The notes under the pieces were generated by a model. That model had not been told where the DNA came from. It saw only the letters and a list, made by a program, of their open reading frames with translations, and did not search any database. DNA of 64,000 nucleotides, from assembly GCA_021295915.1 (NCBI GenBank), contig JAGWBK010000022.1:22740-86739 (forward strand), in the 5' to 3' direction. Below are positions 1,414 to 26,384 of the stretch, piece by piece. Made by a program: the position numbers and the translations under genes. Positions within the stretch are counted from its first letter, which is position 1. The number at the start of each line of letters is the position of its first letter. The stretch is from Dehalococcoidia bacterium. GTDB taxonomy: Bacteria; Chloroflexota; Dehalococcoidia; Lucifugimonadales; UBA1123.

Positions 1414-1488
1414 TGGAGCGGGAGAGGGGATTCGAACCCCCGACCCCTTCCTTGGCAAGGAAGTGCTCTACCACTGAGCTACTCCCGA
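1414..1488 (-). tRNA. tRNA-Gly (anticodon GCC)
   Basis: Reverse complement reads TCGGGAGTAGCTCAGTGGTAGAGCACTTCCTTGCCAAGGAAGGGGTCGGGGGTTCGAATCCCCTCTCCCGCTCCA. It forms a cloverleaf with anticodon loop TTGCCAA, T-loop TTCGAAT and an encoded CCA. Pair 1:72 reads U:C. Confidence 0.9.
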
Positions 1489-1491
1489 TAG

Positions 1492-1567
<76 letters not shown>

Positions 1568-18943: not shown

Positions 18944-19141
18944 TTGAGCAGCCTGACCAATGAAGATGTGCTGGCCATCGCTAGAGCGGTCGACCTCGAG
19001 ATACACGAGCCCGATCTGACCCAGGTGCGATACAGCCTCAATGCGATCCTGGAGGCAATGGACCAGGTCGACATACCGGGTCTGAACGCACAGGAACCTC
19101 TTCCAATCATCCCGCCGCAGGAGGAAGCAGATGGCCGATAG
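18944..19141 (+). CDS. GatC-like small protein (AtzG-like partner of the adjacent amidase)
   Basis: 65 aa, LTNEDVLAIARAVDLEIHEPDLTQVRYSLNAILEAMDQVD, matching the GatC pattern (hxxLAxLxL..eEl..h...l..IL.hh..l). TTG start after AGGAGGTG. 11-nt overlap with the amidase gene. Confidence 0.6.
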   Translation: MSSLTNEDVLAIARAVDLEIHEPDLTQVRYSLNAILEAMDQVDIPGLNAQEPLPIIPPQEEADGR

Positions 19142-20558
19142 AGACCTCATCTACCTGTCAGCGACGGAGCTTGGGCGGAGAATACAGGCGGGTGAAGTCT
19201 CACCAGTAGAGGCCGCAGAAGCGTACCTCGAACGCATCGTAGAGGTGGAGCCGAAGCTCAACGCGTACATCACCGTGCTAGGCGATGAAGCGATCGAGTC
19301 GGCACGGCAGGCCGAGTCCGAGATCGCGGCCGGAAACCACAGGGGGCCGCTGCACGGCGTTCCAGTCGGGGTGAAGGACCAGATTCACACCGCCGGCATC
19401 CTGACGACGAGCGCGTCGAAGCTCAGGGCGGACTTCGTTCCCGACGAGGACGCCACTGTCGTCCGCAACCTTAAGAGAGCAGGCGCGGTGATCATCGGCA
19501 AGCTGAACATGACCGAACTGGCCTTCGGCGACCCAATCACGTCAGCGTTCGGAGTCACTGGAAACCCGTGGGACCCGCCACGAAATCCAGGGACGTCCAG
19601 CACAGGTTCCGGGGCAGCGACAGCCTCGTTCATGTGTGCTACTTCCCTTGGAGAGGACACAGGTGGATCTGTGCGCGGCCCCGCTGCCAACTGCGGACTG
19701 GTGGGCCTGAGGCCATCGTGGGGCAGGGTCAGCCGGTACGGAGTGGACGGCGCGTCGTGGTCGCTCGACACCATCGGGCCGGTCTCCAGGACCGCAGAGG
19801 ACTGTGCGGCGACCATAGGCGCGATAGCGGGCTACGATCCGCGCGACTCGTACACGTGGGACACACCGGTGCCGGACTACCCGTCGCTCCTCGGAGGCGG
19901 CATATCAGGTCTGAGAATCGGCGTGGTCAAGGAGTTCACCGATCCCGAGTTATCTCCCGCCACACCTGAAACGCTTGACGCGATCTCTGCCGCAACTGAA
20001 GTGCTCATCGAGCTGGGAGCGGAAGTCCAGCAGGTGTCGCTGCCGCTGGCTCCACTTGCGGGGGTTGCGAGCCGCACCATCAGCGCGGTCGAGCGGGCAG
20101 GCCTAAACCCGCAATGGATTCGCGAGAGGGCTGAGGACTTCCATCCCAACATCAGGGTGCAGCTGATGACCGCGGACCTGATCCCGGCCACCGTGTACAA
20201 CAAGGCGCAGAAGATGCGGTCGATGATACGCGCCCAGGCTCTCGAGATGCTTGAATCCGTTGACGTGCTGCTGATGCCGACATCGCCTGCTCCACCGCAG
20301 GTGATGGACCTCACCGCGGGCATAAACAGCGAACGCGAAGCATCATCGTGGCTGTCGGATGCCAGTTTCAGGGGCCTGTTCAGCATGGTCAGCGGTCCTG
20401 CGCTGTCCATATGCTGCGGGTTCACCACCGAAGACGGGGTCGAGCTGCCCCTGGCCATGCAGATCGCTGGCAGACCGTTCGATGAGGCCACTCTATTGAG
20501 AGTCGCCCACACTTACGAGCAGGCGACCGAGTGGCACACACGCCGGCCACCGATTTAG
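19131..20558 (+). CDS. Amidase-signature (GatA-like) family amidase
   Basis: 475 aa with GPLHGVPVGVKDQI, GTSSTGSGAATA and DTGGSVRGPAA motifs (Ser-cisSer-Lys family). Confidence 0.9.
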   Translation: MADRDLIYLSATELGRRIQAGEVSPVEAAEAYLERIVEVEPKLNAYITVLGDEAIESARQAESEIAAGNHRGPLHGVPVGVKDQIHTAGILTTSASKLRADFVPDEDATVVRNLKRAGAVIIGKLNMTELAFGDPITSAFGVTGNPWDPPRNPGTSSTGSGAATASFMCATSLGEDTGGSVRGPAANCGLVGLRPSWGRVSRYGVDGASWSLDTIGPVSRTAEDCAATIGAIAGYDPRDSYTWDTPVPDYPSLLGGGISGLRIGVVKEFTDPELSPATPETLDAISAATEVLIELGAEVQQVSLPLAPLAGVASRTISAVERAGLNPQWIRERAEDFHPNIRVQLMTADLIPATVYNKAQKMRSMIRAQALEMLESVDVLLMPTSPAPPQVMDLTAGINSEREASSWLSDASFRGLFSMVSGPALSICCGFTTEDGVELPLAMQIAGRPFDEATLLRVAHTYEQATEWHTRRPPI

Positions 20559-20560
20559 AA

Positions 20561-21541
20561 GTGAGTGACGTCCTGATTACCGGGGCCGCCGGATTTGGCG
20601 GGTCCAACCTGTCGAGAGCACTACTCAAGCAGGGGTACAGCGTAACCGGGCTGGATATCACAGCACCAGGCCACGCTGACCTGTTGCGACACGAACTGTG
20701 CAATCCACACTTCAGCTACGTGTGGAAGAGCATCCAGGACATTCAACCCGGGGACGTGGAGGGCCATTCGGTCGTGGTGCATATGGCAGCTCAACCAGAT
20801 ACCCCCCTTGGCTTCGAGTCACCGCGTTACACCGTCATGCAGAACATAGATGGCACCGTCGCCTTGCTGGAAGCAGTGCGACACGCTGGATGCGTGTCGA
20901 AAGTGATATTTGCTGGATCCGGGAATGAAGTCGGTCGCCCACTCTATTCCCCCATCGACGAAGATCATCCTCTGACTCCGCACAATCCGTACGGGTTCTC
21001 TAAGGCGGCAGCCGAACTCGCCCTGTGGTCGTGGCATCGAGCCTACGGGGTACCGTCAATCGTCATGACCACAGGCGTTGTTATCGGTCCCAACATGCGA
21101 CGCGAGGTCTTCATATTCAAGTGGTTATGGAACGCTCTGTGTGGCAAGCCCATAATCGTTGAGGGCGGACAGCAGACGAGGGATGTGTCCTACATTGACG
21201 ACGCAGTGAAGGCGTGGGTTCTTGCGATTCAAGCGCCTCACAGAGATGTCGTAGGGCACAAATTCCTCGTGGGCTCCGGCCGAGAGTACTCCATCGATGA
21301 ACTGGCAAAGATCTGTCGGAACGTGGCCGGGACAGACGTCCCGATCGAATACGTCGACTACCGACCTGGGGAAGAGGGTCAGCGCGAGGCGTTCAACCCC
21401 GACAAAGCCCGGCGGGTACTGGGGTACTCTCCAAAGATTGGGCCTGAAGAGGCCATCTCTCTAACCGCCGAGTGGATAAGCCACCTTGCGGGCTCCTCGC
21501 CAAGCCACGTTCAGGCCCACGCGCGACCTCCAGAGAAGTAA
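20561..21541 (+). CDS. NAD-dependent epimerase/dehydratase (extended SDR)
   Basis: VLITGAAGFGGSNL Rossmann motif and the YGFSKAAAE catalytic YxxxK. GTG start 2 nt after the amidase stop. Confidence 0.85.
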   Translation: MSDVLITGAAGFGGSNLSRALLKQGYSVTGLDITAPGHADLLRHELCNPHFSYVWKSIQDIQPGDVEGHSVVVHMAAQPDTPLGFESPRYTVMQNIDGTVALLEAVRHAGCVSKVIFAGSGNEVGRPLYSPIDEDHPLTPHNPYGFSKAAAELALWSWHRAYGVPSIVMTTGVVIGPNMRREVFIFKWLWNALCGKPIIVEGGQQTRDVSYIDDAVKAWVLAIQAPHRDVVGHKFLVGSGREYSIDELAKICRNVAGTDVPIEYVDYRPGEEGQREAFNPDKARRVLGYSPKIGPEEAISLTAEWISHLAGSSPSHVQAHARPPEK

Positions 21542-22129
21542 TCCGTCCAAAAAGTCGGGCCACCCAATCTGATCGGCCGACTTTCCGAGCATACTGGCCA
21601 CTAACACAGCCAGTATGGAGTCGTGGGTAACAAACACATTCACACGTCCGCTGCGTCCCAGCCCGCGTGCGACGAGTTCAATTAGCATCCCGACGCCATC
21701 TGCGGTAGGACGCATTCCTGCCGGCGGCTCGGAGCCTGACAACTGGCGGCGTACAATGTCGAGTATATCTGTCTCCAAGAACAGAGGGCCCGAAACTTCG
21801 GGGTCCACGACAAACGGGCCAGGGTCACCCAATGTGCGATCGAGTTGAACCGGGGAGTCGCTGCCACAACCTTGGAGAATAGCCTCAGCGGTCTGAACAC
21901 ACCTCGGCACCGGACTTGATGTGACGAAAACTTGTCTACCCGCGATCAGTGCCTTTCCAAGCTGAGCCGCCGATACGACACCATGCGCAGTCAGTGGAAC
22001 GTCGACTCCAAAAGTGCCAGTCCGGATTTCCTCCCTCTCGGCATGCCTGATTACCAGCGCAGCGTCTATTCGGTCAGGAATCGATTCCAGCCCGTCCAGA
22101 ATGTAGTCGACAGGGCTGTAGCCGTTCAC
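21461..22129 (-). CDS. Histidine phosphatase (phosphoglycerate-mutase-like) family protein
   Basis: 222 aa with LVIRHAEREE (RHxE catalytic motif) and VFVTHDSILAV (second His). Confidence 0.75.
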   Translation of the reverse strand: MNGYSPVDYILDGLESIPDRIDAALVIRHAEREEIRTGTFGVDVPLTAHGVVSAAQLGKALIAGRQVFVTSSPVPRCVQTAEAILQGCGSDSPVQLDRTLGDPGPFVVDPEVSGPLFLETDILDIVRRQLSGSEPPAGMRPTADGVGMLIELVARGLGRSGRVNVFVTHDSILAVLVASMLGKSADQIGWPDFLDGLLLWRSRVGLNVAWRGARKVAYPLGG

Positions 22130-23817
22130 ACTGCCACCGCACGGATTACGGAACTGACCGACTCAGTCGGTATCACGTCAAGTACCCTAAATCCTGAACT
22201 GTCCAGCATGTATCTGAACTGGGCTTCGGTTCGTTCGGCGCCTCCGGTAGTCACGAGCATGTGCAGGTCGAGCAAGCTACCTGAACCTGTTGTGTCATCC
22301 TTAACCATCTCGACTACATAGAGGATGTTGTCTGCGCACATCGATTCCCGGGCGCGTTTCAGAATTCTCAGCGCGTCTGAATCCGACCAGTCGTGCAGCA
22401 CTCTTGCGAGAACTATTGTCTCAGATGATATCGGCCACTTCTCGAACAGGTCAGCACCCACGAAAGTGCAGCGGCCATCCAAGTCTTCTGGGACTTTGGC
22501 GGTAGATGTTACCTCGGGTCTGTCCATCACCACCCCGAACAAGCCAGGACAGGAACGCAACAGAGCAAAGGTCAACTCTCCAGTTCCACCGCCGGCATCC
22601 AAGATACTCTGATGACCGGTGAAGTTGACGGCCTCGGCCAAGTCACGGTAGTCGTGCTTAGCGTACGTGGCCATAGCATTGTGATATGACCGCAGATCTC
22701 CAGGACGTTCCCCCACCCATTCGAAGAAGTTCTTTCCAAAAGCACTTTCAAAGCCGGGCTGACCTGTACGTAGCGCGTGAACTACATCTGACCAGGCCGC
22801 GTACGACTCCCTGCCCCAGTGGAGAGCCGCATCGGCCAGCGAGAGTGGATGTTTCCTAGATAAGTAAGAACCTCTGTCAGTGGGATGGTAGAGATCGCCC
22901 TCGTCTCGGCTTACCAGACCCATTTCCATCAACGCGTGCAGCAATCTGTTGCCGGTATCCGCAGCAAGGTGGCACCTGCTCTCGATTTGCTCCGCCGTGG
23001 CGGGTAACGGTTCAAACACTCCGAGTTCGACCGCGACACGAATGGTCTGAGTCCTCCAGAGGCCAACCATTTCGCCGGAAAGCTCCTCCAGAGGAGAGTG
23101 CGTAGGCTTCCTAAGCTCGAGCGTGGTATTGCCTGAGTGGTTTATCGTCGACAGAGAGCCGTCGAACCTCTCTACTCTGGACTGCCCGTTGTAGAAGGGC
23201 TCAACACTTCTGAACCTACTCTCGTACAGTTGCACTCCCCTTGTGTCCACATGATGCCATCCGTTCGAGTCGCAAGCTCTCGCGTGTCCCTTGTGGAAGA
23301 CATCGAGGTCCAAGAACCAGCGACTGTGGACAAGATTCCCTGACGCGTCTATGTGGGTGTGTTTGCCATCTGACCTCTGAACGACAGCGATTCCGTCCCT
23401 AAAGTCGCCGGCGTAGCTGTAGCGCTCTGAGTAGGCAGGAGAACCGTCGTCAGTGGTGTGAAAATAGCTGCCGTCGTTTAAGCGGACCGGACATCGGCCC
23501 TCCTGGAAGTTCCCGCACCAGGCGTACATCTCCGAGTGAAGGGGACTTCCGTCGGGGAGGATGTGGCACCATCCGCGATGGGTTTGGACTGCAGCTTTCC
23601 CATCGTAGAAACCATAGGTCTCTACGAAGCGGGAGAGATACGCTGGCAACCCGTCAGAAGTGATGTGGTAGGCGCCCGTGCTGTCCCTGGCCGGCGCTAG
23701 ACCAGGCTCGTGAAACTTCTGAACCTCCAAGAACCTCTGGGTGTACGCGGGTTTCCCGTTGAGCAGGTGATGGGTGCCTTCTGTGGACAACGTGTAGTCC
23801 AGCCAAGTGGCGTTCAC
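22126..23817 (-). CDS. Fusion protein with an N-terminal WG-repeat region and a C-terminal class I SAM-dependent O-methyltransferase (small-molecule OMT type with a dimerisation/winged-helix domain)
   Basis: Repeated ..G.AxVxx.dGWghIdxxG.. units (aa 20-245), then LGVFEPL...MEMGLVSRD, then ILDAGGGTGELTFALL...ARVLHDWSD. Likely GTG start at 23817, giving a GTGA overlap with the upstream stop (the ATG at 23844 is also possible). Confidence 0.75.
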   Translation of the reverse strand: MNATWLDYTLSTEGTHHLLNGKPAYTQRFLEVQKFHEPGLAPARDSTGAYHITSDGLPAYLSRFVETYGFYDGKAAVQTHRGWCHILPDGSPLHSEMYAWCGNFQEGRCPVRLNDGSYFHTTDDGSPAYSERYSYAGDFRDGIAVVQRSDGKHTHIDASGNLVHSRWFLDLDVFHKGHARACDSNGWHHVDTRGVQLYESRFRSVEPFYNGQSRVERFDGSLSTINHSGNTTLELRKPTHSPLEELSGEMVGLWRTQTIRVAVELGVFEPLPATAEQIESRCHLAADTGNRLLHALMEMGLVSRDEGDLYHPTDRGSYLSRKHPLSLADAALHWGRESYAAWSDVVHALRTGQPGFESAFGKNFFEWVGERPGDLRSYHNAMATYAKHDYRDLAEAVNFTGHQSILDAGGGTGELTFALLRSCPGLFGVVMDRPEVTSTAKVPEDLDGRCTFVGADLFEKWPISSETIVLARVLHDWSDSDALRILKRARESMCADNILYVVEMVKDDTTGSGSLLDLHMLVTTGGAERTEAQFRYMLDSSGFRVLDVIPTESVSSVIRAVAV

Positions 23818-24911
23818 GAGGTAACTGGTCTCCTCATGTTGCAACCCTGACAGAGGGCGTTCTGCATGTAGTTGGACCGCAGGAAAGTGTATTCACTGCC
23901 ATTCCAAATATCGCTCAAACTCGTGCTATTGAGATTACCGAACTCGCCAAGTGTGCGCCGCAGCACGTCCGGGGCACAGCACGGGTTGAACCTTCCGTCA
24001 GAGGCCACCCATGCCTCATGCCCGAGGAACGGACACTCTCCTCCGGGGGCAATGTCTCCATCGACTTCTTCGTCGAGCCTGAATATGTTCTCGAGAAGTA
24101 CCTTCTCGCCCGAGGGGAGTCTGTGCAACTCCGCCATTTCGTGAGCCTCGTCGACCACAGCGTTCCATCGGGTGATCGCCTCAGGGCTTCGCCGCATCGA
24201 CTGGCGCCGCATTTGATCGAAGTGCACCCACAGGTGGTGCCCCTTCACGCGATCTACACCTAGATTTGCAGCAAGAATCACGACATCCGGAAGCTCCCTA
24301 ATGTTGATCTCCATGAAGGTCAGTTGAAATGTCACACGGCACCGGTTTCCGCCGTTCTGTGCGTGTTCGTCCCTAACTGCGATGAATTGCCTCACGTTGT
24401 CCAAAACTTCTTCCCAGTTGGAGCCCAGCATCACGCTCTCGTGCGTCTGTCGCGTCGAGCCATTCCAGGAGATCTTCACGTCCGATCCCACCGGTACGAT
24501 GCGCTCTGCCCAAGGCCTAGCACCTCTACGCGGGAAGGTCCCGTTGGTGGTCAAGTTCAGCCTCACACCATAGTTGGAACACAGGTCGATGATCTCGTCG
24601 AAGTGCCGATACAGCAGCGGTTCACCCATAGTGGAGGGGATGATTTCACGAAGCGCCGTTCCCTGGGATTCGGCCAGGACACGCCGAACCAGTTCGATGT
24701 CCATTCGGCGCTTGGGACGCCCATCCCTCCTGCGCTCTGCCTGGGTTGTACTGTACGGCGAGTGATCCTCGCACATTATGCAATGCAGGTTGCAGTCGTC
24801 GGGATTCGTGTCGAAGGTTATTCGCCAAGGGCCCTTACCGGAGCCTGCACTTTGGGACGAGGGGTCTAACTTTCGGTCAACCCGTCCATGGAACGTCCCC
24901 GTGGTCATCAC
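23814..24911 (-). CDS. Radical SAM enzyme with a C-terminal SPASM/twitch-type Cys cluster
   Basis: 365 aa with DDCNLHCIMCE (CxxxCxxC), GEPLL and a C-terminal CPFLGHEAWVASDGRFNPCC...ALCQGCNMRR. Confidence 0.85.
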   Translation of the reverse strand: MMTTGTFHGRVDRKLDPSSQSAGSGKGPWRITFDTNPDDCNLHCIMCEDHSPYSTTQAERRRDGRPKRRMDIELVRRVLAESQGTALREIIPSTMGEPLLYRHFDEIIDLCSNYGVRLNLTTNGTFPRRGARPWAERIVPVGSDVKISWNGSTRQTHESVMLGSNWEEVLDNVRQFIAVRDEHAQNGGNRCRVTFQLTFMEINIRELPDVVILAANLGVDRVKGHHLWVHFDQMRRQSMRRSPEAITRWNAVVDEAHEMAELHRLPSGEKVLLENIFRLDEEVDGDIAPGGECPFLGHEAWVASDGRFNPCCAPDVLRRTLGEFGNLNSTSLSDIWNGSEYTFLRSNYMQNALCQGCNMRRPVTS

Positions 24912-26212
24912 TTCCCTCCACGTACCAGAGAGTCATAGATTCTCTCAATTGCCAGGGCGTGCTCAGTCATATCGGGCACATTCCCATCTCTGGATTGGAG
25001 ATAGCCCCGGTTACCTAATCGCTGAGCCAGATCAGGATCATCGGCCATACGCTGCATCTGTTCAGCTAAGGAAGTCGGGTCTCTGTGAGTGAAAAGCAGC
25101 CCGTTGTCCTCGTGGCGCACGTATTCCGCCATGCCTCCGAAGTCGGCCGTAATCACCGGTACGCCGGCCTGTTGCGCCTCGTGAATCACAAGTGGAGAGT
25201 TCTCAGCCCATATTGACGGAACAACGATCACGTCGCACCTGTCGAACACCTCGGAGACAATCTCAGGGTTCCGGTACTCACCCATCCACTCTATTCGATC
25301 TGTCGCCAGGCCAGGCAGGCTATCAGCCAACGACTTCAGTCCCGCCGTCTCCACTCCCCTATCGCGACCCCAGATCCTGAGCATGGCATCACCAGACAGC
25401 CGACCAAATGACTCGATAAGGTGGTCCACGCCCTTTGCGGCTATATGAGTCCCTATGTACCCAAATGTGAAGGGTTCGCCTTCGCACCTGTTTCGACCTT
25501 CCATGCGCTCCCTGTGGAAGCCGTAGTCCAAGTAGGTGAGCTTCTCTGAGGGGATGCCAAACTCATCCCTAAACCGCTCCATCAGATACCTGGCCGGAGC
25601 GATGAATACGTCGACCGCATCACAGACATCTCGCACATGGGCCATTCTTCGTCCGATCCAGTCCGTCCAATAGGATACGTCGGCTTCGTATTCGCTGTCG
25701 GCTCCTGAGAAGTAGCGGACGTAGCAGCGCACTGCGCACTTCTGGTCATCCTGGCCGTCACAGACAGACCAGTTATCTGTCGGGTCTTCGGGAAACATCT
25801 GGATGAACTGACCCCGCGGGCACATGAGCCAGTAGTCGTGCAGTGTGAACACCACGGGAATCTGTCGGTCCCTAGCCCTGAATACCAGCGACGTAGAGAG
25901 ATGGTTGAGATGGCCAATATGGACGATTTCTGGCTGCACTTCGTCAAGTAGATTCCCGAATGCGTCGTCTACAGCCTGGCGCCTGTATCCGTCCCCTCCC
26001 CTGGCCATATTTATCACATGCAGTGTGATCCTGGGATCTGCCACGTCTTGCTCACGAGCCACAACGTACTCAGGGAGGAATGCATTCTCCTGCCTGGTGA
26101 ACACGTGCACCTCGTGGCGATCGGCGAGGGCCTGTGCCAGTCCTTGGGAATACACCTCCGACCCGGCGTTATAACGCATCGGATAGCCATGTATCACTTT
26201 GACTACTCTCAA
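24908..26212 (-). CDS. GT4-type (GT-B fold) glycosyltransferase
   Basis: 434 aa with a C-terminal VVPSIWAENSPLVIHEAQQAGVPVITADFGGMAEYVRHEDNGLLF (E-x7-E region). TTG start 8 nt after GAGGA. Unusual Cys-rich insert MCPRG...CDGQDDQKCAVRC. Confidence 0.85.
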   Translation of the reverse strand: MRVVKVIHGYPMRYNAGSEVYSQGLAQALADRHEVHVFTRQENAFLPEYVVAREQDVADPRITLHVINMARGGDGYRRQAVDDAFGNLLDEVQPEIVHIGHLNHLSTSLVFRARDRQIPVVFTLHDYWLMCPRGQFIQMFPEDPTDNWSVCDGQDDQKCAVRCYVRYFSGADSEYEADVSYWTDWIGRRMAHVRDVCDAVDVFIAPARYLMERFRDEFGIPSEKLTYLDYGFHRERMEGRNRCEGEPFTFGYIGTHIAAKGVDHLIESFGRLSGDAMLRIWGRDRGVETAGLKSLADSLPGLATDRIEWMGEYRNPEIVSEVFDRCDVIVVPSIWAENSPLVIHEAQQAGVPVITADFGGMAEYVRHEDNGLLFTHRDPTSLAEQMQRMADDPDLAQRLGNRGYLQSRDGNVPDMTEHALAIERIYDSLVRGGK

Positions 26213-26384
26213 GAACTTGATCCTCTATCTGGCGACCAGGGCCAGTGCACTTCTTACTTATGCAGGCTCACTAGCCACGATAATATCAGACCACTTCTGG
26301 GTTGGAGTCGACTCACCATCCGCCATGCAATCCCTCACGCTATAATATCCGCAGTCAATAGGGTCTGAGCAGGGGGTTTCTGAA

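Follow-up and report, generated by a model that had tools for sequence, protein, structure and literature searches.

What would a bacterium make with a glycosyltransferase, a radical S-adenosylmethionine (SAM) enzyme, a WG-repeat module fused to an O-methyltransferase and a histidine phosphatase, all encoded in one tightly packed row? The question is raised by a locus of a Dehalococcoidia bacterium (assembly GCA_021295915.1, contig JAGWBK010000022.1) within a 64-kb stretch of DNA that was analysed as a whole and is called the window here; its coordinates are used throughout. Four minus-strand genes encode a GT4 glycosyltransferase (GT4), a radical SAM enzyme (rSAM), the fusion protein (WG::OMT, where OMT is the O-methyltransferase part) and a histidine phosphatase (HP), and a convergent gene for a short-chain dehydrogenase/reductase (SDR) abuts them; we refer to these genes together as the cassette. 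An earlier note on this DNA could map the combination to no characterised pathway. It does however have a counterpart, since GT4 and rSAM are homologous to WD0613, and WG::OMT to WD0614, of the Undecim Cluster of Wolbachia prophage WO.

The Undecim Cluster corresponds to genes WD0611-WD0621 of Wolbachia phage WO and received its name in 2022; its third gene, UC3/WD0613, encodes a glycosyltransferase::radical-SAM fusion (PMC9203015). WD0613 had been described in 2015 as a protein with glycosyltransferase group 1, radical SAM and SPASM domains, and WD0614 as an 'unusual fusion' in which a KWG/pfam14903 repeat is joined to an O-methyltransferase; both proteins were detected by mass spectrometry, and syntenic homologues were noted in Desulfovibrio, Haliangium, Capnocytophaga and Saprospira (Baldridge et al. 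2015, PMC4701759). The function of the cluster was still called unknown in December 2025 (PMC12801941), with biosynthesis of exopolysaccharide or lipopolysaccharide (EPS/LPS) as the working guess (PMC9203015, PMC12801941). In tblastn comparisons with phage WO (MN180251), the window GT4 matches the N-terminal half of UC3/WD0613 with 51% identity over 434 aa (E 1e-154), rSAM matches the C-terminal half with 54% identity over 351 aa (96% of its length; E 9e-139), and WG::OMT matches UC4/WD0614, annotated there as 'hypothetical', from end to end (33% over 547 aa, E 1e-88). The UDP-glucose 6-dehydrogenase (UGDH) that accompanies the cassette in other Dehalococcoidia loci is 36% identical to UC10, and the window SDR only 27% identical to UC2. 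By homology, the window cassette is a Dehalococcoidia variant of the Undecim Cluster core, and thus of a known but uncharacterised kind, in a new phylum.

The likeness extends beyond the three homologous proteins, in that the gene order is the same, the genes are tightly coupled, UGDH is associated and convergent both in the Dehalococcoidia loci and in Wolbachia, both have PhyH (encoded by its own gene in Wolbachia, and fused N-terminally in some of the Dehalococcoidia loci), and both systems are mobile. The differences lie in the fusion state, as GT4 and rSAM of the window are two overlapping genes rather than one ~780-aa protein, and in the surrounding genes: the window adds the histidine phosphatase, has a convergent SDR of a different lineage from UC2, and lacks from its cassette the GlmU-like gene, the ABC exporter, the two threonine aldolases, the G3P transporter and the DMT permease of the Undecim Cluster, as well as UGDH and PhyH, which are both found in other Dehalococcoidia loci. 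Instead of an endosymbiont of arthropods, the host here is one of the Dehalococcoidia, of free-living or sponge type. Relatives of the window cassette occur in up to three copies, whereas each Wolbachia genome has at most one Undecim Cluster, and wPip and wRec have none (PMC9203015). In the published literature we found no description of a set of WG repeat, radical SAM enzyme and glycosyltransferase, nor of a SAR202 or sponge cassette of this kind.

The four minus-strand open reading frames (ORFs) and their overlapping starts and stops are confirmed by the ORF list and by the sequence itself, and the features are collected in Table 1. When the reverse strand is read directly, GTGA overlaps are seen at 24911-24908, 23817-23814 and 22129-22126. 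The first of these is present as described in the earlier note, but the start of rSAM is ambiguous, being either the GTG (365 aa, 4-nt overlap) or the next codon, an ATG at 24908 (364 aa, 1-nt TGATG overlap), and 364 aa is the length of the rSAM orthologues in databases. The longest ORF for WG::OMT begins at a TTG at 23844; the GTG at 23817, on whose use the second overlap had been made conditional, yields 563 aa, which is the length of most orthologues and therefore supports the GTG start over the longer frame. In a cross-phylum alignment the N-terminus of GT4 aligns from residue 1 with all homologues. The domain assignments proposed for all four proteins are upheld by Pfam (Glycos_transf_1/Glyco_transf_4; Radical_SAM and SPASM; WG_beta_rep, Dimerisation and Methyltransf_2; His_Phos_1), the motifs quoted for them are all present (C39xxxC43xxC46, MCPRG...CDGQDDQKCAVRC, DAGGGTG and RHAE), and judging from alignments the catalytic motifs are intact in all four.

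Table 1. Features of the cassette and its surroundings in window coordinates, and viperin genes found in related loci in the coordinates of those loci (L numbers are our designations of the loci compared).
Feature	Position	Strand	Remarks
GT4 (GT-B, retaining-type) glycosyltransferase	24908-26212	-	434 aa, TTG start; Pfam
Radical SAM enzyme, C-terminal SPASM/twitch-type domain	23814-24911	-	364-365 aa; Pfam
WG::OMT fusion ORF	22126-23817	-	563 aa from GTG; Pfam
WG beta-repeat module	23110-23817	-	residues 1-236 of WG::OMT; Pfam WG_beta_rep
Class I small-molecule OMT (winged-helix dimerisation domain and Methyltransf_2)	22126-23094	-	residues ~242-563 of WG::OMT; Pfam
Histidine phosphatase (HP), branch 1	21461-22129	-	222 aa, RHAE motif; Pfam
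GalE-like SDR (nucleotide-sugar 4-epimerase/dehydratase family), convergent	20531-21541	+	336 aa; Pfam
Intergenic region 5' of GT4	26213-26384	-	GAGGA Shine-Dalgarno ahead of the TTG start
pVip genes in related loci	L003:13658-14536; L004; L008:8947-9795; L014:11744-12598; L032; L036; L045; L078; L065:12389-13225; L054:2360-3229; L041 (split)		

We examined whether the genes of the cassette are kept together elsewhere. A genome scan with rSAM returned 80 loci, about 72 of them from Dehalococcoidia, SAR202 or Chloroflexota metagenome-assembled genomes (MAGs) and the remainder from Ktedonobacteraceae, Parachlamydiales and three cultured Corallococcus species; several of the MAG bin names presumably come from sponge studies. 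For co-conservation, 74 Dehalococcoidia/Chloroflexota loci were compared by tblastn, with a gene counted as kept at a coverage of at least 80%. The order GT4, rSAM, WG::OMT and HP with a convergent SDR is found in almost all loci. GT4, rSAM and WG::OMT are kept in 72 of the 74, HP in 68 and SDR in 67, with the full set of five in about 67, and this neighbourhood comparison bears out the proposal that the four genes are one co-conserved unit. The gene order and the overlaps of 1-4 nt recur in orthologous loci even though the window flanks are shared by only five of them and are unrelated elsewhere (522 of 728 flanking ORFs are singletons), which argues for an operon rather than chance. Median identities to the window proteins are 75% for both GT4 and rSAM, falling to 71% for SDR, 65% for WG, 59% for OMT and 54% for HP.

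The cassette is present two or three times in several genomes; the window itself has no second copy. Recent duplicates have identical rSAM proteins (100%) with HP identity down to 72-87%, while the rSAM proteins of old paralogues are 74-82% identical. In two recent pairs, L044 and L081 (OZ253565) and L054 and L055 (OZ253586), identities are 100% for rSAM, 97% for GT4, 91-98% for WG::OMT, 88-92% for SDR and 72-87% for HP. This gradient of divergence within genomes suggests recombination or accelerated evolution at the HP/SDR end. The window copy lies among ordinary metabolic genes in an arrangement that is syntenic in five relatives, and prophage genes are not adjacent. The G+C content of window 22001-26000 is 0.56-0.57 compared with 0.59-0.62 in the surrounding 2-kb bins, a difference that would fit horizontal acquisition, although the setting here is chromosomal and syntenic. 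Promoter and terminator scans around the cassette gave signals at or below chance, and an Rfam search 5' of GT4 found no riboswitch or regulatory RNA element; two adjacent tRNA genes (1417-1567, minus strand) are the sole Rfam matches at the gathering threshold in the window.

The association of GT4 with rSAM goes further outside the Dehalococcoidia. The two genes are unfused in all Dehalococcoidia loci examined, and they form a single GT4::rSAM gene in Corallococcus, on Rickettsia plasmid pREIP, in phage WO and in the metagenomic loci L086, L089, L092, L100 and L102. Because they are fused into one polypeptide in most lineages, GT4 and rSAM can be regarded as a functional unit. In Corallococcus coralloides, a single 804-aa GT4::rSAM ORF is followed by a stand-alone WG protein of 241 aa, and OMT, HP and SDR are lacking. 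Laterally transferred copies of the Undecim Cluster occur on the Rickettsia plasmids pREIS2, pREIP and pRhe, and in Cardinium and Phycorickettsia. With tblastn we find plasmid copies that are 53-58% identical and are carried by Arsenophonus plasmids of louse-fly origin, by Rickettsia pREIP and by a plasmid of R. asiatica, where they are annotated only as 'glycosyltransferase' and 'WG repeat-containing protein'. IMG/VR contains, in addition to the Wolbachia prophage copies, a viral contig with 65.6% G+C (IMGVR_UViG_3300048930_000955, L096:406-10839) that encodes GT4::rSAM (828 aa), a stand-alone WG protein, a terminase large subunit and SSB. Judged by its gene content, this contig represents another phage lineage that carries the minimal triad and has no relation to Wolbachia phage WO.

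Some details of the plasmid copies are of separate interest. On Arsenophonus plasmid CP132904 (L094, 3286-5965 and 6933-15370) the module includes SDR, GT4::rSAM, WG::OMT, PhyH and a threonine aldolase, and the gene table of the plasmid lists nothing for the GT4::rSAM stretch, which may thus be unannotated or a pseudogene. The module adjoins panB, panC and panE on these ~20-kb Arsenophonus plasmids, in a setting of vitamin provisioning by the symbiont of a blood-feeding insect. We considered whether the plasmid copies could be the 'aminoglycoside antibiotic cluster' of Rickettsia buchneri and rejected this identity, as that is a different locus (PIG-L, KanB-type aminotransferases, RAGE-A; PMC8770908). 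The D483N substitution in WD0614 was likewise set aside as a link to antiviral protection, because it is one among many single-nucleotide differences separating the variants and hence no evidence.

The WG module is the third constant part. It is built of six ~35-aa repeats, the first five of which share an invariant His, and aromatic and acidic residues are invariant at many positions. The module is modelled as all-beta with pLDDT >90 and retains 47-66% identity across phyla. A profile search against the PDB gave noise only (E 1.7), with no solved relative, and in a full-length Foldseek search of WG::OMT the methyltransferase matches swamped any signal from the WG fold. When the module alone was searched against 1.8 billion representative proteins, 262 clusters were found at E<1e-30, in which it aligns end to end within host proteins of very different lengths. 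The fusion partner is OMT in the majority; 17 clusters have a histidine phosphatase, 11 a P-loop AAA_33/dNK-like kinase and 7 a protein-kinase/APH/Kdo-like kinase, and others have PhyH, class II aldolase, TPR or a Pol-beta nucleotidyltransferase, or no partner. In some Dehalococcoidia orthologues PhyH is added as well, giving an 847-aa triple fusion, PhyH::WG::OMT. In all six informative loci of non-standard architecture the WG gene directly follows a fused GT4::rSAM gene of ~780 aa, one further contig being too short to tell. Together with the Corallococcus triad, this argues that GT4, rSAM (usually fused to it) and WG form the invariant core, and the OMT, HP and SDR of the window are, as far as domain architecture indicates, one of several decoration sets. 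The WG module itself is, on the same grounds, a shared adaptor fused to interchangeable tailoring enzymes.

The proposal that WG is a recruiting domain is therefore retained in part, as it is carried by many tailoring enzymes; recruitment of a peptide substrate, which had also been considered, lacks its precursor, its PqqD-like RiPP recognition element (RRE; RiPP, a peptide made ribosomally and then modified post-translationally) and its protease. There is a clear parallel to RREs, because WG is conserved, looks non-catalytic, occurs alone or fused to varied tailoring enzymes, and always stands beside the same core enzyme. WG differs, however, in having an all-beta six-repeat fold rather than a winged helix, and no peptide substrate is evident.

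Neither rSAM nor GT4 falls in a family with an assigned pathway: nothing comes near an NCBIfam cutoff, rSAM has no PDB match by sequence, and no PADLOC system is matched. The best-scoring NCBIfam model for rSAM, that of a tungsten-cofactor maturase, reaches 77 bits where its cutoff is 380, and for all four operon proteins the equivalog models score far below their cutoffs. The homologues of rSAM number >3,000, and the best 120 clusters are all at least 73% identical. The closest annotated outgroup enzyme, on Brachyspira plasmid pBHWA1 (24.5% identity, 91% coverage), belongs to a CDP/dTDP-sugar operon, where its gene is flanked by rfbF and rfbC and accompanied by those of an SDR and a glycosyltransferase.

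Alignments show that rSAM has, besides C39xxxC43xxC46, seven more invariant cysteines (C110, C190, C292, C310, C311, C353 and C356). The SPASM region (Pfam SPASM, 44 bits) contains C292-x13-G-x4-C310C311 and C353xxC356 and no CX5CX3C, as compared with the full SPASM motif, CX9-15GX4C ... CX2CX5CX3C ... C, which holds two auxiliary clusters. C110 and C190 are two further invariant cysteines N-terminal to this region, and the number of clusters cannot be read from the sequence. The cluster motif begins at residue 39, and there is no N-terminal RRE or other recognition domain. In an AF2 model (pLDDT 75), the best Foldseek matches are SkfB, SuiB, DesII, PqqE, viperin and BlsE at 12-18% identity. 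By E-value the peptide maturases SkfB and SuiB are closest (maturase identities 14-18%), whereas the best TM-scores are those of DesII and BlsE, which belong with the matches acting on sugars or nucleotides (DesII, BlsE, viperin, BtrN and MoaA), a class for which the scores are 0.5-0.67. These enzymes share the fold class of rSAM, and DesII and BlsE also share its company of nucleotide-sugar genes; they differ in their low identity (12-18%), and the window enzyme has the seven extra invariant cysteines and belongs to a family coupled or fused to GT4, as none of the others is.

GT4 contains four cysteines in its N-terminal domain (C131, C151, C159 and C163; C-x19-C-x7-C-x3-C, window 25724-25822) that are invariant in the alignment of Wolbachia, Dehalococcoidia and myxobacterial proteins. 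What the earlier note called a Cys-rich insert is thus a conserved and probable metal site (Zn or Fe-S). The E337-x7-E345 (EX7E) motif is also invariant in the cross-phylum alignment. PDB matches by sequence are weak (E 3e-11 to 5e-7) and cover the C-terminal domain only, the best being 6kih (the Tll1590 protein, 3e-11), followed by 3c4q/3c48 and 2jjm/3mbo; we take these to be sucrose-phosphate synthase, MshA and BshA, respectively. GT4 also scores above the Pfam 'GT4-conflict' cutoff.

The remaining genes are more variable. The OMT half is most similar in sequence to natural-product O-methyltransferases, with PDB matches to 6c5b (titled LaPhzM, 1e-50), MmcR, CalO6, a phenazine methyltransferase and, further down, DnrK; it has the DAGGGTG SAM motif and an invariant H475-D476-W477. 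HP has the RHAE motif and a downstream THD, and is the least conserved gene of the cassette (median identity 54%). It is missing from the Wolbachia, Rickettsia, Arsenophonus, Corallococcus and Ktedonobacteraceae versions and is fused to WG in others, a distribution that places it, so far as homology searches reveal, outside the universal core. In L001 (12780-13280), an 84%-identical syntenic relative, and in L007, HP is truncated to 166 aa and matches residues 1-158 only, which is consistent with its being dispensable.

The abutting, convergent epimerase-like gene is confirmed as the SDR gene, whose tail overlaps that of HP by 81 bp (window 21461-21541), an arrangement that recurs with 75-81 bp in most orthologous loci (e.g. 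L006, L017). About 25 codons are read on both strands, and the junction is one of the positions of viperin insertion. The best PDB match of SDR is the UDP-glucose 4-epimerase 7ys8, followed by 6zl6 and MoeE5, with 3vps fifth (94 bits, against 119 bits for the best GalE); we assume 6zl6 and MoeE5 to be UDP-glucuronate 4-epimerases and 3vps to be TunA. A GatA/AtzE-like amidase gene (19131-20558) overlaps the annotated SDR start by 28 nt on the same strand in the window and the five syntenic relatives, and holds the slot taken by UGDH in 31 other loci. Alignment with most orthologues begins only at SDR residue 14, so that translation may really start further downstream.

The genes that accompany the cassette elsewhere give an indication of its chemistry. 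UGDH stands next to SDR in 31 loci and a second SDR is found 5' in several; a BshB-like PIG-L deacetylase domain is encoded 5' of GT4 in three. A NodU-like carbamoyltransferase and a WG::aldolase are also found, the latter closest to 3-oxo-tetronate-4-phosphate decarboxylase (OtnC-like), MtnB and FucA. The Parachlamydiales locus has a hexapeptide acyltransferase, O-antigen-type neighbours, a GT2 glycosyltransferase, an AsnB-like protein and an ABC-2 transporter pair, and the Wolbachia cluster has a GlmU-like gene, a GntG-family PLP aldolase and the G3P transporter. All the recurrent accessory genes, as annotated, suggest a substrate among the sugars, nucleotide sugars or small phospho-sugars.

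A second radical SAM gene is present in some cassettes. Its ~292-aa product is a genuine prokaryotic viperin (pVip; NF038283, 297 bits against a cutoff of 180), unlike the window rSAM, which scores 22.8 bits with the same model and has only a weak, generic similarity to pVip in PADLOC (E 4.5e-6). pVip lies in or beside the cassette in 11 of ~74 loci (Table 1) and in four positions, at the HP/SDR junction, at the WG::OMT/HP junction, just past SDR and 3.4 kb upstream; there is none in the window. The cassette pVips are only 53-85% identical to one another. This divergence and the four positions are better explained by a functional link that is ancient or arose repeatedly than by one insertion event. 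Among the genes in the flanks of some loci are restriction systems of type ISP and type I, DruA, BrxC and TerB, along with toxin-antitoxin pairs and insertion sequence elements. With PADLOC, the 125 immediate neighbours gave single confident matches to DpdF, DruA, PsyrT, MzaA, Cas3-like, BrxH, QueC and pVip and two to MADS, a defence share of ~8% that is without a genome-background control. In PADLOC-DB v2, GT4, WG::OMT, HP and SDR had no match. Locus L100 has an ADP-ribosylglycohydrolase and ARPP-1 as neighbours. In L102 (4962-9885), a WG::TPR gene 3' of GT4::rSAM is translationally coupled to that of a 719-aa 'Cytotoxic' (PF09000, colicin-E3-type) protein, followed by a 98-aa DUF6980 ORF, resembling a toxin/immunity pair attached to the module. 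The viperins, the dNK/AAA_33 kinases and nucleotidyltransferase among the WG partners, the GT4-conflict match, the L102 toxin and the defence flanks suggest a product that is active in biological conflict and is perhaps nucleotide-like. They are no proof of it, and the window copy lacks viperin and lies amid ordinary metabolic genes.

Our preferred reading, held tentatively as a serious possibility, is that the cassette would encode a mobile, self-contained pathway whose product, a glycoside or nucleoside-like small molecule remodelled by radical chemistry and methylated, would serve in conflict or in interaction with a host. Mobility is supported by carriage on phage WO, a second phage and plasmids, by the hypervariable flanks and by genomes with multiple divergent copies. 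From the gene unit, its homology, the GT4-rSAM fusion, the adaptor behaviour of WG and the intact motifs, we infer the following chemistry, order of steps and role. The convergent GalE-like SDR, judged by homology and adjacency, would supply an epimerised or otherwise modified UDP-sugar, or UDP-uronate where UGDH adjoins. rSAM would then remodel the sugar or nucleotide-sugar by hydrogen abstraction, much like DesII, BlsE, BtrN or viperin, and the outcome could be oxidation, dehydration, decarboxylation, epimerisation or C-C bond formation. The retaining GT4 would join the sugar to an acceptor that probably bears a phosphate, in either order with the radical step. WG may bind a common intermediate, or dock on GT4-rSAM, and so present the intermediate to the fused OMT, after which HP would strip the phosphate and release or activate the product. 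An antimicrobial, antiviral or symbiosis factor seems a more likely role for such a product than housekeeping.

Of the two readings offered in the earlier note, the first, in which a glycosyl-phosphate is made, dephosphorylated, O-methylated and modified by radical chemistry, comes closer. Its sugar or glycoside part fits better, given UGDH, the SDRs, PIG-L, the NodU-like protein, the aldolases and the rfb-type outgroup operon, but GpgS/GpgP serves only as a logic, GpgS being a GT81 enzyme and thus of a different family from GT4. Several observations weigh against our reading. The chemical steps are all drawn by analogy, as no member of the family has an assigned product, substrate or activity. 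The O-methyltransferase family mostly methylates phenolic or enolic groups and not sugar hydroxyls, and the window shows no evident origin for an aromatic moiety. A large and highly conserved adaptor is unusual for small-molecule tailoring and suits a macromolecular substrate better. The Wolbachia, Rickettsia, Arsenophonus and Corallococcus versions have no HP, and the use of a phospho-acceptor may thus be an embellishment of particular lineages. The closeness of rSAM to peptide maturases by Foldseek E-value also counts here, as does the lack of a transporter in the window cassette; the Parachlamydiales copy lies in an O-antigen-like locus with an ABC-2 exporter.

That last locus is a starting point for the alternative that the cassette builds or caps an EPS, LPS or S-layer glycan, with WG as a carbohydrate-binding module that positions a methyltransferase, kinase or phosphatase on the glycan terminus, much as the kinase/methyltransferase WbdD caps O-antigens made by GT4 polymerases. 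An adaptor domain is more sensible for a polymer substrate, UGDH, SDR and GlmU-like proteins are typical of glycan loci, divergent multi-copy paralogues suit surface variation, and the Parachlamydiales genes (GT2, AsnB-like, ABC-2 pair) and the published EPS/LPS guess (PMC9203015; PMC12801941) point the same way. However, about 70 Dehalococcoidia loci have no polymerase, flippase, exporter or lipid-carrier glycosyltransferase nearby, and the WG partners include enzymes that act on small molecules, namely phospho-sugar aldolase/decarboxylase-like enzymes and the nucleotidyltransferase. The OMT is of natural-product type, the repeated association with viperin has no obvious glycan logic, and Wolbachia, to our knowledge, lacks LPS. 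We therefore regard glycan modification as unlikely, though still to be reckoned with.

A second alternative is an anti-phage or conflict system, in which GT4-rSAM makes a toxic or chain-terminator-like nucleotide or hypermodifies DNA or RNA, and the kinase, phosphatase, nucleotidyltransferase or methyltransferase domains control activation or self-immunity. It overlaps in mechanism with the small-molecule pathway that we prefer and differs in taking defence as the function and a nucleotide or nucleic acid as the substrate. The pVips at 11 loci, the flanks with type ISP and type I restriction-modification genes, DruA, BrxC, DpdF, MADS, PsyrT and toxin-antitoxin genes, the GT4-conflict score, the coupled Cytotoxic gene of L102 and the ADP-ribosylglycohydrolase and ARPP-1 of L100 are all in its favour, as are the viperin-like fold of rSAM (TM ~0.5-0.67, with the weak PADLOC match to pVip) and the dNK/AAA_33-type kinases and Pol-beta nucleotidyltransferase among the WG partners. 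No PADLOC system model is matched beyond generic radical SAM similarity, however, defence proteins make up only ~8% of the immediate neighbours, and the window copy and its syntenic relatives lie amid ordinary metabolic genes. The cassette has no nuclease or other effector. Phages and obligate endosymbionts carry the module along with exporters and importers, a setting more in keeping with a secreted metabolite than with abortive or DNA-marking defence. Defence as the primary function therefore appears improbable. A bolder reading, which we regard as a long shot, would make the GT4-rSAM-WG triad a widespread synthase, borne by phages, plasmids and islands, of a new class of radical-SAM-remodelled antimetabolites of nucleoside or sugar type, allied in function to viperin, for which WG would bind the product and recruit interchangeable activating or immunity enzymes; the Wolbachia orthologue, in the highly expressed Undecim Cluster, would then yield a bioactive small molecule that takes part in host phenotypes such as virus blocking.

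Less probable still is a housekeeping glycoside made by a glycosyltransferase and then a phosphatase, such as a methylated glycosyl-glycerate, a glycosyl-inositol or a compound like a low-molecular-weight thiol. With the PDB matches identified as above, GT4 and its dedicated phosphatase can be likened to SPS/SPP and MshA/MshA2, in which a retaining EX7E GT4 enzyme is likewise found near a dedicated phosphatase, here in the same operon; the BshB-like PIG-L deacetylase 5' of three loci and the G3P-type transporter of the Wolbachia cluster would also fit. The similarity to these enzymes is however weak, and the phosphatase, which is of the histidine type, is not kept throughout the wider family, being the least conserved protein, truncated in L001 and L007 and missing in several lineages. 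Carriage on islands, phages and plasmids and the divergent multiple copies are not the pattern of a housekeeping solute, and a solute pathway needs neither a radical SAM enzyme nor a WG adaptor, so that this alternative is very doubtful. The least likely is the second reading of the earlier note, a SPASM-type peptide or protein modification system in which rSAM crosslinks or otherwise modifies a ribosomal peptide or a protein, GT4 glycosylates it and WG recruits the substrate or is itself scaffold or substrate: the top Foldseek E-values (SkfB, SuiB, PqqE), the seven extra invariant cysteines as in SPASM enzymes with two auxiliary clusters, the RRE-type behaviour of WG across tailoring enzymes, and the stand-alone WG proteins with many invariant His, Tyr and Trp residues speak for it, but identity to the peptide maturases is only 14-18%, the rSAM motif at residue 39 leaves no room for an N-terminal recognition domain, the accessory genes are overwhelmingly sugar and nucleotide enzymes with the outgroup rSAM in a nucleotide-sugar operon, and the cassette has no PqqD/RRE domain, leader peptidase, RiPP exporter or conserved small ORF (the last without a search dedicated to small ORFs). 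The lack of an RRE, precursor peptide and protease favours a sugar-derived small-molecule pathway over a RiPP.

For the small-molecule pathway that we favour, the tunicamycin cluster offers a striking parallel in gene content, with SDRs (TunA/F), a radical SAM enzyme (TunB), a glycosyltransferase (TunD), a PIG-L protein (TunE), a histidine phosphatase (TunG), a methyltransferase (TunM) and an acyltransferase (TunC) by annotation (PMC6965331, PMC6105854). There too the radical SAM enzyme is the most conserved protein, the phosphatase is dispensable and translational coupling is extensive. The tun cluster differs in having no WG module, and TunM is 216 aa (PMC6965331) as against ~320 aa for the OMT part here, while the window lacks a TunH-type pyrophosphatase, an acyl carrier protein and fatty acylation. 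We considered tunicamycin biosynthesis as a homologous system and did not retain it as such, since the parallel established is in gene content only, and it is kept as a mechanistic analogy.

The Undecim Cluster is among the most conserved, highly expressed and often laterally transferred accessory regions of Wolbachia and arthropod endosymbionts, and is duplicated in an obligate strain. Its core extends far more widely than the endosymbionts, to dozens of Dehalococcoidia genomes, myxobacteria, chlamydiae and a second phage lineage. To this the present analysis adds a three-part core of GT4, rSAM and WG, the adaptor principle and the repeated recruitment of viperin, turning a vague 'EPS/LPS or antibiotic' annotation into specific, testable hypotheses. 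The compact five-gene version with separate GT4 and rSAM genes and the cultured Corallococcus with the minimal triad provide tractable material. If the product is a bioactive molecule of nucleoside or sugar type, it would represent a new natural-product class and a candidate symbiosis effector.

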